Positions 18,459 to 56,323 of a stretch of DNA of 59,375 bases are shown one piece after another (the stretch's first letter is position 1; every line of letters starts with the position of its first letter). Both the position numbers and the translations under genes were made by a program. The notes below the pieces were generated by a model that was given only the letters and a program-made list of their open reading frames with translations, was not told the origin of the DNA and ran no database searches. This DNA comes from Candidatus Gottesmanbacteria bacterium (GTDB lineage: Bacteria; Patescibacteriota; Microgenomatia; UBA10105), in assembly GCA_023245415.1 (NCBI GenBank), contig JAHFKJ010000006.1, positions 1-59,375 on the forward strand, given 5' to 3'.

Positions 18459-20842
18459 TCTTCACTTCTTGTTGGCCAGGAAGCGGTGATTAATAAATTT
18501 TTCGATTCAATCGGCATTAAGTGCCAAATTTCTTCAGTCACAAACGGCATGAAAGGATGGAGGAGTTTCAGAATCGTGAAATAAATATAGCGCATGACGC
18601 TTAATGTTTTTGCTGTTTCTTCATGTTTTTTCTCCAATTCGTAAGTTCTAATTCGCAATTTTAAATTCTCAAGATACCAATCGGCATATGTATGCCAGGT
18701 GAATTCATACAGCGAACTTGTAGCTTCACCAAAGTTGTAATTATCCAGGGCTTTCGTTACCCGATTGATCTGCATAGTTAGTTGTGAAAGTATGCGTCTG
18801 TCTTGAGGGTGTAAAGTTTTTCGCGCTGCTACTAAATCTTCGTAAAAAGGAATATCCACTGGACTGCCATCTGTGAACTGCATACTTACAAATCTGCCAA
18901 TGTTCCAGAGTTTATTGGAGAAATTGCGATAACCCCGGATGCGTTCTTCCATTTGCTGTTTGGAAATCAACAAATCATTTCCGCTGTCGCGTCCGGCAAG
19001 CAGGGCCATACGCACAGCATCGGCGCCATATTTGGCAATAGCTTCGTTGGGATTAATACCGTTACTTTTGGATTTGCTCATTTTTTGGCCTTTTTCGTCC
19101 CGGAGTACGCCATTTATCAAGGCAACCTGAAAAGGAACCTCATCAGTCAGATACAAGCCGAACATGATCATCCGCGCTACCCATAAAAATAAAATTTCAT
19201 ACGCCGTATTCATAACTGTAGTAGGGTAAAAGTGTTTAAAGTCATTGGTATCTGAGTTTTTTAGCGTATTTACCGGCCATTGTCCTGACGAAAACCAGGT
19301 GTCAAAAGTATCCGGATCCTGAATATATTCATCATCTCCAGCTGGCATATCCTGTGAAACTATTGGAGATTCCAGTACGTCGGTGCGCGACCGCGTGTCG
19401 CCTTTTTTCAATAATTCAAATTCGTGAATCTGTTCAGTCGTCTTTTGTGATGAACGTCCGTACCATACAGGGAGTTGCTGTCCCCACCAGATTTGTCGGG
19501 AAATTGGCCAATCCCGGATATTTTTCATCCAGTTAAAATACATTGCTTCGTATTTCTTAGGAATTATTTTAACCTTGCCGGTTTCAACTGCGGTGGTAGC
19601 ACGTTTTGCTAAAGGCTTAATACTCACGAACCATTGACGCGACACCAGAGGTTCAATTGTAGTGGCACAGCGTTCACAGACAGCCACTTCGTGTTTGAAG
19701 GGGACAATTTTTTCCAGCAAATTATTTTTGGATAAGTATTCGGAAATTAACTGCCGGGCAACTTTAGTTTTTAGTCCTGCCCACTGTCCTGCGTCGCTGG
19801 TAAGCTTTCCATCAAAGTCAATTCCGTTTTTAATCGGGATATTATGTTTTATGGCTACCTGATAGTCCTTGCTGTCATGGGCCGGTGTCAGTTTTACAAC
19901 ACCTGTGCCAAATTTGGGATCTACAAATTCGTCGCCGATGATTTTCATGTCTTTTCCGGTTAAAGGGTTTTTGACATTTTTTCCGATTAAGTGAAGGTTT
20001 TTTTTGTCCGTCGGGTTTACTGCCAGATGTGTATCCAGCCAGATCGGTTCCACCCGAGTCGTGGCAACAATTACATATCCTTCTTCCCATGTTTTGGGGT
20101 ATCTTACAAAATAAAGTTGGTCTTCCTGTTCTTTCCATTCCAGTTCCAGATCAGCTAAAGTGCTCCTACAACGGGGACACCAGTTAACGATGCGAAATCC
20201 GCGATAGACTAATCCTTCACGGTGCATTTTGATAAATGTTTCCAATACCAACTGGGAAATTTGCGGATCCATGGTAAACTTTTCGCGCTGCCAGTCACAG
20301 CTGGCACCCAAAGCTCGGAGTTGATTTTCCATGAGCATTTTGTTATCCATGCAAAACTTATAGCATTGCTTAACAAATTCTTCACGGCCCAGGTCGTAGC
20401 GCGATTTATCCTGTTCCTTCCTGAGTTTTTTTTCAAAAGTAACTTGGGTGAGAATTCCGGCGTGATCTACGCCTGGCAGCCATAAGGTGGGTTCGCCTCG
20501 CATTCGGTGATAGCGGATCAAGGCGTCGGAAACGGCGACAAATATCGCGTGCCCCAGGTGGAGTTCGCCATTGGCATTGGGCGGGGGCATAATAATAGAG
20601 AAAGGTTTACCTTGTTTATCCGCCTCTGGTGGAAGCGAGCCGAAGGGTTTACCGTGAGCGGAGCCGAAGGGTTTACCGTGAGCGGAGCCGAAGGGTTTAC
20701 CGTGAGCGGAGCCGAAGGGTTTACCGTGAGCGGAGCCGAAGGGTTTACCGTGAGCGGAGCCGAAGGGTTTAAATGCTCCTGCCTCTTCCCACATTTTATA
20801 TATGCGGTCTTCAGTAGTTTTGTGGTCGTATGTTTTATCCAT
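18455..20842 (-). CDS. valS: valyl-tRNA synthetase
   Basis: PPPNANGELHLGHA (HIGH), GTGVVKLTPAHD, DWPISRQIWWG, DTWFSS and KMSKS. Confidence 0.97.
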   Translation of the reverse strand: MDKTYDHKTTEDRIYKMWEEAGAFKPFGSAHGKPFGSAHGKPFGSAHGKPFGSAHGKPFGSAHGKPFGSLPPEADKQGKPFSIIMPPPNANGELHLGHAIFVAVSDALIRYHRMRGEPTLWLPGVDHAGILTQVTFEKKLRKEQDKSRYDLGREEFVKQCYKFCMDNKMLMENQLRALGASCDWQREKFTMDPQISQLVLETFIKMHREGLVYRGFRIVNWCPRCRSTLADLELEWKEQEDQLYFVRYPKTWEEGYVIVATTRVEPIWLDTHLAVNPTDKKNLHLIGKNVKNPLTGKDMKIIGDEFVDPKFGTGVVKLTPAHDSKDYQVAIKHNIPIKNGIDFDGKLTSDAGQWAGLKTKVARQLISEYLSKNNLLEKIVPFKHEVAVCERCATTIEPLVSRQWFVSIKPLAKRATTAVETGKVKIIPKKYEAMYFNWMKNIRDWPISRQIWWGQQLPVWYGRSSQKTTEQIHEFELLKKGDTRSRTDVLESPIVSQDMPAGDDEYIQDPDTFDTWFSSGQWPVNTLKNSDTNDFKHFYPTTVMNTAYEILFLWVARMIMFGLYLTDEVPFQVALINGVLRDEKGQKMSKSKSNGINPNEAIAKYGADAVRMALLAGRDSGNDLLISKQQMEERIRGYRNFSNKLWNIGRFVSMQFTDGSPVDIPFYEDLVAARKTLHPQDRRILSQLTMQINRVTKALDNYNFGEATSSLYEFTWHTYADWYLENLKLRIRTYELEKKHEETAKTLSVMRYIYFTILKLLHPFMPFVTEEIWHLMPIESKNLLITASWPTRSED
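20601..20770 (-). repeat. in-frame tandem array of 24-nt REP-like units in the valS 5' end
   Basis: CGAAGGGTTTACCGTGAGCGGAGC x5 exact (20641-20760), plus a sixth unit interrupted by TCCGCCTCTGGTGGA; encodes (KPFGSAHG)5-KPFGSLPPEADKQGK. Confidence 0.95.
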
Positions 20843-21090
20843 AAAAAAACCGTCCTGCCTTAAAAAGCTAAAGGACGGAAAGTTTTACCTTTTTCCGTGG
20901 TACCACCTTCATTTAGCGTTTAGGAATTAGAAATTAGAATTTAGAAATTAAACAAATTTCTTTACGCTAAGTTCTAAGCGCTCTCATTTACAGTTTTTAC
21001 GGGCTTACCCGGTCTGCCTTACTAATTAAATAAAATGTTCTGACAAACAGCTCCCTGGTGACTGGCCAAGTAATAACGCTTTTATTTACT
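20843..21090 (-). ncRNA. T-box riboswitch (valS leader) with ultrashort Stem I and Val specifier
   Basis: Antiterminator AAGG-UGGUACC-ACGGAAA...UUUCCGU-CCUU. Stem I CUUGG-CCA-GUC-A-CCAGG-GAGC. Stem II with AGAAC/AGUAA S-turn and IIA hairpin CGGG-UAAG-CCCG. Competing hairpin CCGUCCU/AGGACGG followed by U7. Confidence 0.92.
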
Positions 21091-22660: not shown

Positions 22661-22968
22661 GCAATTTTCTTTTTCGGGGCACCATACAAATAATGGTCAA
22701 GATTTATGGAACCGTCAGTTGGATCATCAGGTGAGCCATATTTTCTATCGATTTTTTCTGCTTTTTTTGCTAGTTCCAGCAGAGATTGTATTCCAGTTAG
22801 TCTTTTTGATTTACTTTTTTTTCTTGTTTGGATACGTTTTTCCACTTTCACTTTTTCCACGACAAACCGTCTGACAAGCGATGACATGGATTCATTCGTC
22901 ATCTGGGAAATATATTCCAGATCACGTTTAGTTTCAACATCAAGCAGTATTTGGGCGCGTGTCAACAT
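22657..22968 (-). CDS. RHH/CopG-like antitoxin, TA pair 2
   Basis: MLTRAQILLD...SMSSLVR and C-terminal SINLDHYLYG; overlaps the toxin start. Confidence 0.82.
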   Translation of the reverse strand: MLTRAQILLDVETKRDLEYISQMTNESMSSLVRRFVVEKVKVEKRIQTRKKSKSKRLTGIQSLLELAKKAEKIDRKYGSPDDPTDGSINLDHYLYGAPKKKIA

Positions 22969-23002
22969 ATACACAATAGTATTACACAACTATGCGTTTT
23001 TG

Positions 23003-24115
23003 TCAAAAATCCACAATTTCGACTGACAAATCCGGTTGAGCTTCAACTTTTCTCCAATCCACAGAATTCCTGTGAAAATAGGCGTATGCGCCGATGTAGA
23101 CGGCGTTGTCGGTACAGAGTTGCACCGGGGGTACGAATAACTTAATCGATGATAAGTGATATGTGACAAGTGACAAGTTAAACTGCTCACGTAATCTCAG
23201 ATTTGAAGCAACGCCGCCTGAAAGAAGGATTGACTTAGCGTTATATTTTTGAGCAGCTTTAAGTGTTTTTTGTACTAATACGTCAGTAATTGCTTCCTGA
23301 ATTTCGTAAGCAAAAGCGGAAACTAGTTGTAAGTTGTCAGTTGTAAGTTGTGGGTTAGAAACATATTTATTCCAATCACGTGCTACAGCAGTTTTAAGAC
23401 CGGAAAAGGAAAAATTAAGCGAGTCATCATGTAGCATAGGCCGCGGAAATTTAACTGTGAACGATGAACTATGAACATTGAACTTACATGCTGTTTCCTG
23501 TATAGCCAATCCGCCGCGGTTGCCAAAGCCTAAGAGCCGGGCAGTTTTGTCAAAACATTCGCCTGCTGCATCATCCAAAGTTCCGCCCAGCCATTTCAAA
23601 TTTTTGGTTGATTCCATCAAATATAATTCTGTATGACCGCCGGAAACGACGAGAGAAATGGCGGGGAAAACTATTTGTTTGTGGTCCCTCGACTGCGGGA
23701 CGTACCGAATGGTACATCCCTGCGCTCGGGAGGAATTTTGTCCTTCGACTACGTTCGGGACAAAATTCGCATACATGTGGGCCAGGACATGATTGACGGG
23801 AATCAGGGGTTTGTTCCAGACAAAGGCCAAAGTTTTCGCAGTTTCTACACCAATTAAAAGCGAACCGATTAACCCGGGGCCAATTGTTACGGCAATTGCA
23901 TCTATATCATCTTTGGTAAACCCAAACATGCCTTCGGTTAAAACCGGAATCATGTACTCAACTTGATTGCGCGCGGCAACTTCCGGAACCACCCCGCCGT
24001 ACTTTTCGTGAACTTGGGTAGAAGAGGTGAGAGTATTGGTTAAAATTGTAGTACCATTCTCTACAATTGCCACAGCAGTTTCATCACAACTTGTTTCTAT
24101 TGCCAGTATTTTCAT
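23003..24115 (-). CDS. tsaD: tRNA t6A37 threonylcarbamoyltransferase with four repeat-derived insertions
   Basis: ILAIETSCDET, GGVVPEVAAR, GPGLIGSL, HVLAH, VSGGHT, DDAAGE, FSFSGLKT and CTDNA. Confidence 0.97.
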   Translation of the reverse strand: MKILAIETSCDETAVAIVENGTTILTNTLTSSTQVHEKYGGVVPEVAARNQVEYMIPVLTEGMFGFTKDDIDAIAVTIGPGLIGSLLIGVETAKTLAFVWNKPLIPVNHVLAHMYANFVPNVVEGQNSSRAQGCTIRYVPQSRDHKQIVFPAISLVVSGGHTELYLMESTKNLKWLGGTLDDAAGECFDKTARLLGFGNRGGLAIQETACKFNVHSSSFTVKFPRPMLHDDSLNFSFSGLKTAVARDWNKYVSNPQLTTDNLQLVSAFAYEIQEAITDVLVQKTLKAAQKYNAKSILLSGGVASNLRLREQFNLSLVTYHLSSIKLFVPPVQLCTDNAVYIGAYAYFHRNSVDWRKVEAQPDLSVEIVDF

Positions 24116-24124
24116 AACGCATAT

Positions 24125-24547
24125 TTCCTCACCTTAGGATAAGGGGAGGTGAGGAGGGGTTACGAATTTTAGAATTTCTTCGCATACCCCCGACATGTTA
24201 TTTAAGACTTCATTATTCCAAAATCGAATAACTTTAATTCCATGGTTTTTTAAATATTCAGATCTCATTAAATCTTGAATTTTTTTCTCGCTTTCATTGT
24301 GTTGTCCACCGTCTATTTCTATAGCTAATTTGTATTTTGAACAATAAAAATCAAGTATATATAGACCAAATCCAAATTGTCGTAAGAATCTCGTATTATT
24401 GATTTGTTTACCTCTAAGTTTTGACCAAAGTAATCTTTCTGCGTCAGTACAATTTTTCCTTAACTGTTTTCTTCTAATTTTAAATTCTGGTGAATTTACT
24501 AAATATTTCATAACTCACCCTAACCCTCTCTTATCTTAAGAGAGGAA
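24125..24547. mobile_element. DUF559 gene bracketed by ~36-nt inverted hairpin repeats (putative mini mobile unit)
   Basis: Reverse complement of 24125-24161 (AACCCCTCCTCACCTCCCCTTATCCTAAGGTGAGGAA) resembles 24512-24547 (AACTCACCCTAACCCTCTCTTATCTTAAGAGAGGAA); each contains a hairpin. Confidence 0.5.
24134..24511 (-). CDS. DUF559 / Vsr-like endonuclease
   Basis: LRKNCTDAERLLWSKLR, FLRQ, YILDFYC, IEIDGGQH and VIRFWNNEV. Confidence 0.92.
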   Translation of the reverse strand: MKYLVNSPEFKIRRKQLRKNCTDAERLLWSKLRGKQINNTRFLRQFGFGLYILDFYCSKYKLAIEIDGGQHNESEKKIQDLMRSEYLKNHGIKVIRFWNNEVLNNMSGVCEEILKFVTPPHLPLS

Positions 24548-43966: not shown

Positions 43967-44108
43967 TGTCAGGCGGAATAGGTGGCATGGGCGGAATGGA
44001 CTATTGATCCGCCAGCCGGCGGAGAAATCCTGAGCTTGTCGAAGGATAAAGTTTTCAGTAGAAAAAAAGAATTAATAACCCCTGCGAGCGCGCAGGGGTT
44101 ATTGGTTG
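43967..44108 (+). repeat. direct repeat copy 2: orphan groEL 3' end + REP-like hairpins + terminator
   Basis: Same sequence as 40318-40436, with TCCGCCAGCCGGCGGA at 44008-44023 and a compensatory AATAA/TTATT stem base. Confidence 0.92.
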
Positions 44109-44119
44109 CATTGACAGTA

Positions 44120-44524
44120 TTAGGGTTCTAAGCGGGTTATATTTTTGAAGTGACTGAGTCCTTTATCGTAGGAATATGCTTTTAAAATCCTTTCTGCGCT
44201 AATCAGATGAATATTTATCACATCAATAAAATCAGTTTGTTGTGCACAGTCGAGTAGTACTTCTTCCAGCCATTTTTTATTGCGCACTTCCAGCCCTTTA
44301 GAGTTTAAAGCTTTACTCACACAATCGGAAATTGCGTTCCAGGTAAATTTTTGGCGCTGTAAGAACCAAACAATTTCTGCCATAACCCATTCAGTAGTCC
44401 ACAAAGAAACATAGTCTTGAGCAGCTTTTCTAAATAAAGCTATGGCGGCTTGTTGTTTTGACAAATCAACATCAAACAACGTGTAAATAAAAATGTTAGT
44501 ATCAACGAATATTTTTTGCTGCAT
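44120..44524 (-). CDS. PIN-domain toxin, TA pair 6
   Basis: FVDTNIFI, VMAEIVW, DFID and YSYD. Confidence 0.88.
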   Translation of the reverse strand: MQQKIFVDTNIFIYTLFDVDLSKQQAAIALFRKAAQDYVSLWTTEWVMAEIVWFLQRQKFTWNAISDCVSKALNSKGLEVRNKKWLEEVLLDCAQQTDFIDVINIHLISAERILKAYSYDKGLSHFKNITRLEP

Positions 44525-56235: not shown

Positions 56236-56323
56236 AAGCAATAAGCGACAAGCTATAAGTGACAAGAAGAAATCATAAAAATTTACCTGTCACTTCTCAC
56301 ATGTCACTTATCACTTATCACTA
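56236..56323. repeat. inverted 7-nt periodic arrays in the nrdR-nrdJ spacer
   Basis: AAGCAAT AAGCGAC AAGCTAT AAGTGAC facing GTCACTT CTCACAT GTCACTT ATCACTT ATCACTA. Confidence 0.75.

Follow-up and report, generated by a model that had tools for sequence, protein, structure and literature searches.

In-frame repeat DNA in four variable loops of a Candidatus Gottesmanbacteria tsaD gene

Introduction

Small palindromic repeats that lie in frame within bacterial genes have been described as Rickettsia palindromic elements (Ogata et al. 2000, as described in PMC10969869) and among other intragenic repetitive extragenic palindromic (REP) sequences (Di Nocera et al. 2013, PMC3733652). In these accounts the palindromes occur in unrelated housekeeping genes, often in pairs or twice per gene, and encode 20–30 residues thought to lie in tolerant loops, and the same can be said of the repeats that we describe here in tsaD, an essential gene of tRNA modification that an ultra-small groundwater bacterium, Candidatus Gottesmanbacteria, carries on a 59,375-nt stretch of DNA (hereafter the window, meaning the whole stretch that was analyzed). 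The tsaD units are 22–27 nt long, unlike the classic RPE-1 of ~150 nt, and their setting differs from that given for the Rickettsia palindromes in its Patescibacteria-type host, in the nesting of one unit within another, and in the presence within the same gene of heptamer arrays and of a fold-back built from native codons. We consider this locus to be, probably, a working tsaD in which translated repeat DNA of two origins occupies the four variable loops of the protein surface.

Several other described systems resemble parts of the locus. The CGTC class of REPs is characterized by an unpaired CGTC (or TGTC/CCTC) tag, an 8–9-bp stem starting with A·T pairs, a 4–5-nt loop and a CCA tail (PMC3733652). 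Ssn nucleases are single-domain GIY-YIG proteins of ~94 aa whose genes are flanked by 20–50-nt hairpins, the Ssn-related motifs (SRMs) described in 2025, and the NTS motif described with them reads CGTC-ATTCCC...GGGAAT-C (PMC11893778). Heptameric repeats are over-represented in bacteria, mainly between genes, and polymerase slippage has been proposed as their source (PMC4692102). Like the repeats in tsaD, recent tandem nucleotide repeats within the genes of Borg elements add disordered protein segments (PMC9879509). Of these systems, the Rickettsia in-frame palindromes and the Ssn-related motifs come nearest to the locus, from both of which its nesting, native-codon fold-back and recurrent coding heptamer arrays set it apart. 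Among the papers covered by our literature search, none joined heptamer repeats with the Candidate Phyla Radiation, Patescibacteria or Saccharibacteria, and the supplementary lists of PMC3733652 and PMC11893778 may contain similar cases.

An intact tsaD gene with four variable loops

The gene under study is the following.

23003–24115, minus strand: tsaD coding sequence, 370 aa, intact open reading frame (ORF); Pfam PF00814 E = 4.5e-76, 6nak E = 9.4e-70

The Pfam TsaD match comes in two stretches that are split by the first variable loop (loop 1), and the best solved relative is the TsaD of Thermotoga maritima (6nak); the family profile and the solved TsaDs together identify a full-length member of the TsaD/Kae1 family. 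H109, H113 and D336 are invariant across 24 relatives, and the metal-binding HxxxH motif and the C-terminal Asp are thus kept. The first-pass annotation, which had been made from the sequence of the window, was right in describing the frame and the catalytic motifs as intact. The window is contig C40 of a genome (G000) of 1.55 Mb in 60 contigs, with 38.7% G+C and 96.1% completeness, which we compared with related genomes of the order (41 in the set, labeled G000, G001 and so on); tsaD is present in 40 of the 41, and all 40 genes were read. A search of 5.8 billion proteins returned a closest TsaD homologue of 67% identity.

Contigs of two sequencing runs cover tsaD without gaps and with 0 differences (X1, 22900–24161; X3, 23078–24084), X3 being another sample of the same study as X1, and no indel or joint was seen in tsaD among the contigs of 4 runs from one study, at a depth of ~5 and with rare variants dropped from contigs. 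The first-pass annotation had asked whether the inserts stay in the mRNA. The repeat segments could be intervening sequences that are removed from RNA or protein, or an artefact of assembly. We regard either as extremely unlikely: all the segments are in frame and stop-free, none matches an intron or intein family, the only Pfam match is TsaD, the sequence is identical in contigs of two samples, and equivalents are found in dozens of independent assemblies. An Rfam scan of tsaD returned nothing on repeats, its one match being at chance level (PVX_3, E = 0.45, at 23059–23111).

We aligned the protein with 56 distant TsaDs, which remained from 80 loci of ≤47% identity once a motif filter had removed 24, and determined how often the residues at each repeat-bearing site are occupied.

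Loop 1 (hairpin units), residues 122–145: occupancy 0–0.3, net gain ~24 residues
Array at 23453–23484, residues 212–215: occupancy 0, net gain 4
Array at 23325–23351, residues ~256–260: occupancy 0.1–0.2, net gain 5–6
Array at 23150–23178, residues 319, 321 and 322: occupancy 0, net gain 3

T. maritima TsaD likewise has a gap at each of the four sites, as the first-pass annotation had expected of a TsaD alignment. With an occupancy of 0–0.3 at residues 122–145, the hairpin region is therefore a true insert of ~24 residues. The heptamer arrays each cover 9–11 codons yet add only 3–6, and they overlie loop sequence that is present in all TsaDs, so that the view of every segment as an insertion holds for loop 1 and not for the arrays. 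In an AlphaFold model of TsaD built with the 24 relatives as input (mean predicted local distance difference test score, pLDDT, 87.3), residues 123–145 are the sole internal stretch with pLDDT <50 and form a coil between helix 109–118 and strand 152–157, while the array sites fall in the coil at 210–237, between helices 238–252 and 262–290, and at the end of helix 306–318. All four sites thus map between secondary-structure elements or at their ends.

Loop 1 starts 5 residues past the metal-binding His113 and varies in the order from a few residues to ~50, with different repeat-like peptides in different genomes (40 tsaD genes); in 100 of the 120 best homologues from a large protein collection it measures 7–59 aa, with a median of 22. 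Even in close pairs whose flanking 170 residues are 83–95% identical, the loops differ in length and can barely be aligned. The loop just after HxxxH is an order-wide hot spot. As a separate observation, the tsaD of G005 (L019) encodes the 13-residue peptide VKDSSPPKADRND in two different loops, which places the same repeat element twice in one gene.

Loop 1 contains a nested hairpin and a codon fold-back

The hairpin region of loop 1 has the following features.

23740–23761, minus strand: hairpin unit 1, sense core CCCGAACGTAGTCGAAGG, 2 mismatches to the dispersed consensus CCGAGCGNAGTCGAGGGAC; encodes VPNVVEGQ
23685–23731, minus strand: hairpin unit 2, the host element, split by the nested hairpin; encodes SSRAQ...SRD
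23698–23724, minus strand: nested insert of 27 nt = 9 codons, placement ambiguous by 5 nt; encodes GCTIRYVPQ
23733–23768, minus strand: fold-back stem, a perfect 11-nt inverted repeat (23733–23743 / 23758–23768) with unit 1 at its apex

A repeat search paired the two units at 23684–23697 / 23740–23753 (86%) and at 23720–23738 / 23749–23767 (74%). They are dispersed repeat units, as the REP-like reading of this pair in the first-pass annotation had implied: the sense core CCGAGCGNAGTCGAGGGAC occurs with ≤2 mismatches in 21 of the 41 related genomes, up to 7 times in each, and 0 times in a backward control. This tighter consensus was used in place of the 22-nt unit 1, which at ≤6 mismatches did no better than shuffled patterns (14 vs 2–19 matches). 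Dispersed copies of this host family read [C/T]GTC-ATCCCGAGCGNAGTCGAGGGAT-C. They are preceded by CGTC or TGTC, which matches the tag of the CGTC REPs outlined in PMC3733652 only in part: the TGTC of unit 1 is partly native codons, and the nested hairpin carries its CGTC within the stem rather than at an unpaired end. The stems also depart from the rule given there: that of the nested hairpin is 10 bp, starts with GGGA and closes on a 4-nt loop with no CCA tail, whereas in the host unit the outer stem comprises 5 bp (ATCCC/GGGAT) and the interior is irregular.

Host-type units were found in loop 1 of 5 of the 40 tsaD genes. They follow the Asn-Phe codons at distances of 3, 26, 26, 3 and 15 nt and are read in different frames; G024, which has one unit, agrees with unit 1 in offset and frame and encodes IPSEVEGS there. 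On a gene tree made without the loop columns the five carriers require five changes, of which well-supported branches force at least 2 (the tree comes from a quick search and is weakly resolved). This distribution fits repeated gain at a hot spot, as judged from the tree and the offsets, with gain followed by loss as the alternative.

Unit 2 has uninterrupted counterparts at the same place in G034 (CGAGCGGAGTCGAGGGAC) and G016 (CGAGCGAAGTCGAGGGAC), and the uninterrupted peptide NSSRA.SRD is encoded in 9 of 100 further homologues, with GCTIRYVPQ inside it only in the gene described here. The interruption is a 24-nt hairpin, GGGACGTACC-GAAT-GGTACATCCC (23697–23720; 10-bp stem, 4-nt loop), and the pentamer CTGCG stands on both sides of it, at 23693–23697 and 23720–23724. 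The first-pass annotation had described this hairpin between CTGCG repeats, and removal of 27 nt indeed restores the sequence that it gave, TCCCTCGACTGCGCTCGGGA. Comparison with the uninterrupted orthologues thus supports the reading of the 27-nt piece as a nested insertion into the host unit. All three tsaD orthologues have CGNAG as the apical loop of the host unit, which suggests that insertion prefers this point, and in one homologue (P0025) another insert occupies the same apex. The repeated pentamer may be a target duplication, or it may be a target motif that the element also carries. A count of four insertions in the gene is too low, since loop 1 alone holds at least three events (unit 1 with its fold-back arm, unit 2 and the nested hairpin).

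In the fold-back, the 5′ arm in the sense direction, GAATTTTGTCC (23768–23758), lies in the Ala-Asn-Phe-Val codons, and the 3′ arm, GGACAAAATTC (23743–23733), is an inverted copy of it. Native codons of the gene make up the outer 7 nt of the 11-bp stem, and their reverse complement stands on the opposite side. G034 and G016 have the same fold-back with a different apex, and in other genomes the arms track the local synonymous codons (G009, CCAATTTTGTT/AACAAAATTGG; G014, TTCGTTAC/GTAACGAA). Arms of at least 8 nt occur in 5 of 39 genes vs 26 of 1950 shuffled loops, and arms of at least 11 nt in 3 of 39 vs 0 of 1950. From this pattern we infer that the fold-back arose by template switching.

As RNA, the 100-nt hairpin region folds into two strong hairpins (−42.8 kcal/mol, z = −5.7; 0 of 200 shuffles were as stable), and as DNA it folds with z = −4.8; the nested hairpin is predicted to stack on the stem of the host unit. 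So strong a fold would suit inserts that are kept for a function, whether as mRNA hairpins pacing translation or stabilizing the message or as peptides altering contacts with partners or tRNA, and such a role would also accord with the closeness of loop 1 to His113 and with the G·U-forming orientation that the hairpin takes on the sense strand both here and in a membrane-protein gene (see below). We nevertheless think it very unlikely, as loop 1 is wholly different in sequence and length between close relatives and only 7 aa long in some, the model shows it without structure, and the same elements are present in many unrelated genes.

The hairpin families and small GIY-YIG genes

We searched the order for relatives of the nested hairpin with the pattern GGAYGYRCC-N4-GGYRCRTCC, in which perfect pairs were also permitted, and found 20 places in 7 of the 41 genomes, with 0 matches when the pattern was read backward in all 41. 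The family form is GGATGYRCC-N4-GGYRCGTCC, in which one strand has T·G and the other C·A, an asymmetry kept in 20 of 20 places, while the stems vary by compensating changes (TA, CA, CG, TG). The T·G strand of the nested hairpin is the sense strand of tsaD. Six of the 20 places are in G000, two of them at contig ends with identical flanks and perhaps one locus. A search for this hairpin with duplicated flanks, suggested by the first-pass annotation, gave a divided answer: of 23 distinct copies, three have CGNAG on both sides (the tsaD copy as CGCAG, two G037 copies as CGGAG), and the other copies have no such flanks or are parts of longer palindromes. One of the two G037 copies (L132, contig C67), with CGGAG on either side, is itself inserted in the 3′ arm of a second family member.

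Members of the family also lie in other genes of G000. A membrane-protein ORF (C43, 21478–22527) has two tandem 27-nt hairpin units in frame, encoding QRDAPTGAS twice, with the G·U-forming orientation on the sense strand as in tsaD. In a Maf-like gene (L169; C29, 2533–3315), direct repeats of TCGCTA enclose a tsaD-type hairpin that is 24 nt long and perfect. The insert in this Maf-like gene is long and holds several G+C-rich repeats, and its Pfam Maf match comes in two stretches.

The genome encodes 11 small single-domain GIY-YIG (Ssn-like) proteins, on contigs C30, C31, C32, C43, C47 and C49, with three of the genes sharing a 6-kb stretch of C32. Three of the 11 genes (C32:44081–44290, C32:48825–49034 and C43:38030–38251, with forms of 81–98 aa) have a tsaD-type hairpin 12–30 nt 5′ of them, and in G034 such a hairpin stands 46 nt 5′ of a GIY-YIG gene that is 66–69% identical to two of the C32 genes, so that the link between hairpin and GIY-YIG orthologue is conserved in two families of the order. 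The gene at C43:38030–38251 lies between two copies of a longer palindrome, GTCATTGCGAGG...GCAATC, one of which bears the hairpin at its apex; the other genes show a repeat on one side. A unit of the host type abuts a GIY-YIG ORF in G003. The proteins have no NCBIfam family above cut-off, and their relatives in the PDB are uncharacterized UPF0213 proteins. Separately, we observed hairpins directly upstream of most of the 11 genes; the upstream hairpin on C32 before 44081–44290 itself contains a nested hairpin.

The arrangement that defines an SRM is a hairpin repeat of 20–50 nt next to a gene whose product is a single-domain GIY-YIG protein of ≤150 aa, and as copies stand directly upstream of such genes, the tsaD-type hairpin behaves like the Ssn-related motifs. 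Both repeat families behave in this way, with cutting by the neighboring nuclease putative. They share with the SRM and NTS repeats dispersed hairpins of 20–50 nt, an orienting asymmetry and flanking single-domain GIY-YIG genes of ~80–100 aa, and the layout of the host unit, [C/T]GTC-AT..CCC...GGG..AT-C, is that of the NTS; relative to the SRM/Ssn examples in that account, they have other sequences, there are 11 paralogous nuclease genes and several hairpin types in one 1.55-Mb genome, and some copies lie in coding sequence (PMC11893778). An Ssn nuclease would in addition belong to CDD cd10448 and cut the hairpin as single-stranded DNA; the likeness here is drawn from genes and repeats.

A second class of genes in G000 is also associated with palindromes, namely seven paralogous RAYT-like genes of the tyrosine-transposase type (PF01797), encoding ~225 aa with no solved relative by sequence.

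RAYT-like genes: C26 2633–3298; C18 20739–21416; C28 12840–13514; C38 2943–3479; C60 8496–9170; C34 13144–13821; C7 4640–5308

Every one of the seven stands between copies of a palindrome family of its own (for example CACCCCGGGGGTG, AGGGTTCAACCCT and AAAGCTAAGCTTT), and no other 12-mers in the genome are as over-represented as these palindromes. This recalls the REP/RAYT (REPIN) system (PMC3116915, NCBIfam NF047646), from which the proteins differ in scoring 33–54 bits against a cut-off of 80 and the tsaD elements in not being RAYT-flanking palindromes: the tsaD units flank none of the seven genes and contain no GTAG tag.

The lack of a transposase tied to either hairpin family would agree with a wholly local origin, in which template switching and slippage produced every feature, the GC-rich hairpins included, gene conversion or convergence rather than transposition accounts for the similarity between loci, and the nucleases are incidental neighbors. 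The fold-back arms copied from the gene's own codons and the heptamer arrays, whose adjacent pairs in G000 are inverted copies of each other in 10 of 10 cases, point in the same direction. This account has to accommodate the same 19–22-nt sequences at unrelated loci in 21 of 41 and 7 of 41 genomes with controls at 0, an asymmetry kept in every copy, and an orthologous GIY-YIG link conserved in two families, and we consider it unlikely. We favor instead an origin for the hairpins distinct from that of the arrays.

Heptamer arrays in tsaD and across the order

The remaining three sites are occupied by heptamer arrays, for which Tandem Repeats Finder (TRF) gave the following values.

23150–23178, minus strand: array 1, period 7, 4.1 copies, 86%, unit TGATAAG (sense ACTTRTC); encodes ~NLSLVTYHLS (residues 313–322)
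23325–23351, minus strand: array 2, period 7, 3.9 copies, 90%, unit AGTTGTA (sense ACAACTK); encodes PQLTTDNLQL (residues ~255–264)
23453–23484, minus strand: array 3, period 7, 4.6 copies, 76%, unit AACTATG (sense NNGTTCA); encodes KFNVHSSSFTV (residues 211–221), a coil before the PRPM motif

TRF, the repeat search and the sequence itself put these arrays and the hairpin pair within 3 nt of where the first-pass annotation had located its four features. Array 1 covers the end of helix 306–318 and the next loop, and its canonical unit, AAGTGAT, is among the two commonest in G000 (6 arrays). At the loop of array 2, G001 has a CACAACC array, and an array of the ACAACT type occupies different tsaD loops in different genomes. 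The loop before PRPM is of equal length in most relatives, several of which have other units there (AATTCAN, AAATACA, AAACTTT, CAAATGC). When 38 tsaD genes of the order were scanned strictly by lag, lag 7 gave 13 arrays, none of them outside the four loops; lag 8 gave three in the loops and one in the core, and lags 5, 6, 9, 10 and 11 gave none. Period-7 arrays are also found inside the tsaD genes of five distant assemblies: Wildermuthbacteria (three arrays), Saganbacteria, Magasanikbacteria, Saccharibacteria and one titled 'bacterium'. Repeat units in Borg genes are reportedly multiples of three, whereas the 7-nt unit here reads in all three frames.

The same period dominates the genome, which has 15, 82, 34, 2 and 6 arrays of at least 3.5 copies at periods 6, 7, 8, 9 and 10, respectively; three simulated genomes (order-3 Markov) had 1 period-7 array of that size each, vs the 82 observed. 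Forty-one of 80 merged arrays lie inside long ORFs, a share below the 87.6% of the genome that ORFs make up, and 19 of 20 array-bearing ORFs tested have Pfam housekeeping families, among them UvrD, GatB, SerRS, MiaA, LeuRS, ArgRS and LepA. The LepA gene (L167; C8, 15265–17406) has four heptamer arrays, two of them as an inverted pair, the LeuRS gene (L165; C57, 4520–7423) has an inverted array pair in frame, and a 1110-aa membrane protein is encoded with three. Cyanobacterial short tandemly repeated repetitive (STRR) sequences and the 'small dispersed repeats' of Elhai et al. 2008 are reportedly comparable heptamer repeats. With the GGGNATC arrays of Xanthomonas and Nostoc, the arrays of G000 share an excess of period 7 over other periods, several unit families and frequent inverted pairs; those of PMC4692102 are described as mainly intergenic and have G-rich units, whereas half of the arrays here are in ORFs, recur at the same protein loops across the order and in other candidate phyla, and have A+T-rich units.

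The first-pass annotation had explained its features by repeated targeting with a 5-nt target duplication, on which view tsaD was hit again and again by mobile elements, and all four features, the arrays included, would be copies of them, every one bordered by a short duplicated target. The 5-nt repeat at the nested hairpin agrees with this, as do the ACAACT-type array in different tsaD loops of different genomes and the sharing of units between loci: the 78 arrays with 7-nt consensus units have only 47 distinct canonical units, vs 67–78 in the null (exact canonical units were compared, since single linkage at 1 mismatch was uninformative, the null collapsing as well). The arrays themselves do not behave as targeted insertions. 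None of the three in tsaD has flank repeats, they overlie pre-existing loops with a net gain of 3–6 residues, orthologous loops of equal length carry unrelated units, and no element boundary or enzyme is known for them; we find it quite unlikely that mobile elements account for all four features. Given the small net gain, the lack of flank repeats and the other units at the same loops, we therefore read the arrays as made in place, as distinct from the dispersed hairpins of loop 1.

Further period-7 and period-14 arrays are present in the window at 20920–20950, 56236–56266 and 56290–56322, with units TTAGAAA, AAGCAATAAGCGAC and TCACTTA.

A possible route to repeat-filled loops

The reading that we favor, repeat DNA of two origins in a working tsaD, can be put as a sequence of events. 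Loop 1 would have received two copies of the dispersed [C/T]GTC element, the first now at the apex of the 11-bp fold-back, whose outer arm is an inverted copy of the Asn-Phe-Val codons. The second would have taken up the 24-nt hairpin of the other dispersed family within its apical CGNAG, leaving CGNAG on both sides of that hairpin and adding 27 nt, or 9 codons. We propose that the hairpins spread as single-stranded DNA into the exposed apexes of hairpins or into similar single-stranded places, by nicking and copy-repair or by template switching, and that selection retains only those copies that are in frame, free of stops and in tolerant loops. The heptamer arrays may arise by replication slippage and local copying with a 7-nt step, overwriting existing loop sequence and adding 3–6 residues each, in a lineage in which MutS (PF00488; MutS_V) and MutL (PF01119) were not found in the 96.1%-complete genome.

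Several points weigh against this account. No hairpin copy has been caught moving, and among the low-depth contigs of one study every allele had the 27 nt and arrays of unchanged length. In G000 only 3 of ~14 loosely matching hairpin copies adjoin a GIY-YIG gene, and the host family has few close copies there, tsaD unit 1 being the only match at ≤2 mismatches. What the published work shows for Ssn is cleavage of single-stranded DNA and an effect on transformation, and not the mobilization of hairpins (PMC11893778). For the arrays, the sharing of units exceeds that expected of pure local slippage and suggests copying between sites or a sequence preference; 7-nt steps break the frame, which leaves the uniformity of the coding arrays unexplained; and since the genome is incomplete, the unfound MutS and MutL are no proof of absence. 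The presumed translation of the inserts is read from their open frames.

More tentatively, tsaD might reflect a regime of the whole lineage, and of the Patescibacteria type, in which 7-nt slippage arrays, codon fold-backs and nuclease-linked hairpins entering apexes keep rebuilding the same surface loops, and these loops would therefore be conserved in place and not in sequence or length. Such a regime, which would not have been described before, would steadily supply the smallest bacterial genomes with new disordered segments of protein.

The tsaD case is one instance of a genome-wide, order-wide habit and not a one-off. A reduced genome of 1.55 Mb appears to tolerate, and to keep producing, translated repeat DNA in essential genes, including tsaD and those for several aminoacyl-tRNA synthetases, LepA, GatB and MiaA, which offers a natural experiment in how far protein loops tolerate insertions. 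Bacterial heptamer arrays have long been known from the spaces between genes; here they are seen to settle repeatedly in protein loops, at sites that are the same throughout an order and in other candidate phyla. For the annotation and phylogenetics of uncultivated bacteria, loops of this kind are prone to homoplasy and worth masking. The repeat tied to the newly described Ssn nuclease family additionally provides a testable enzyme–substrate pair.

Other repeats near tsaD

A 10-bp hairpin, CCTCACCTTA-GGA-TAAGGGGAGG, occupies 24127–24149, within the short spacer that immediately precedes the start of tsaD. The window also contains a perfect 24-nt tandem repeat, GAGCCGAAGGGTTTACCGTGAGCG, at 20637–20771 (5.6 copies, 100% identity), which is G+C-rich within an A+T-rich genome.

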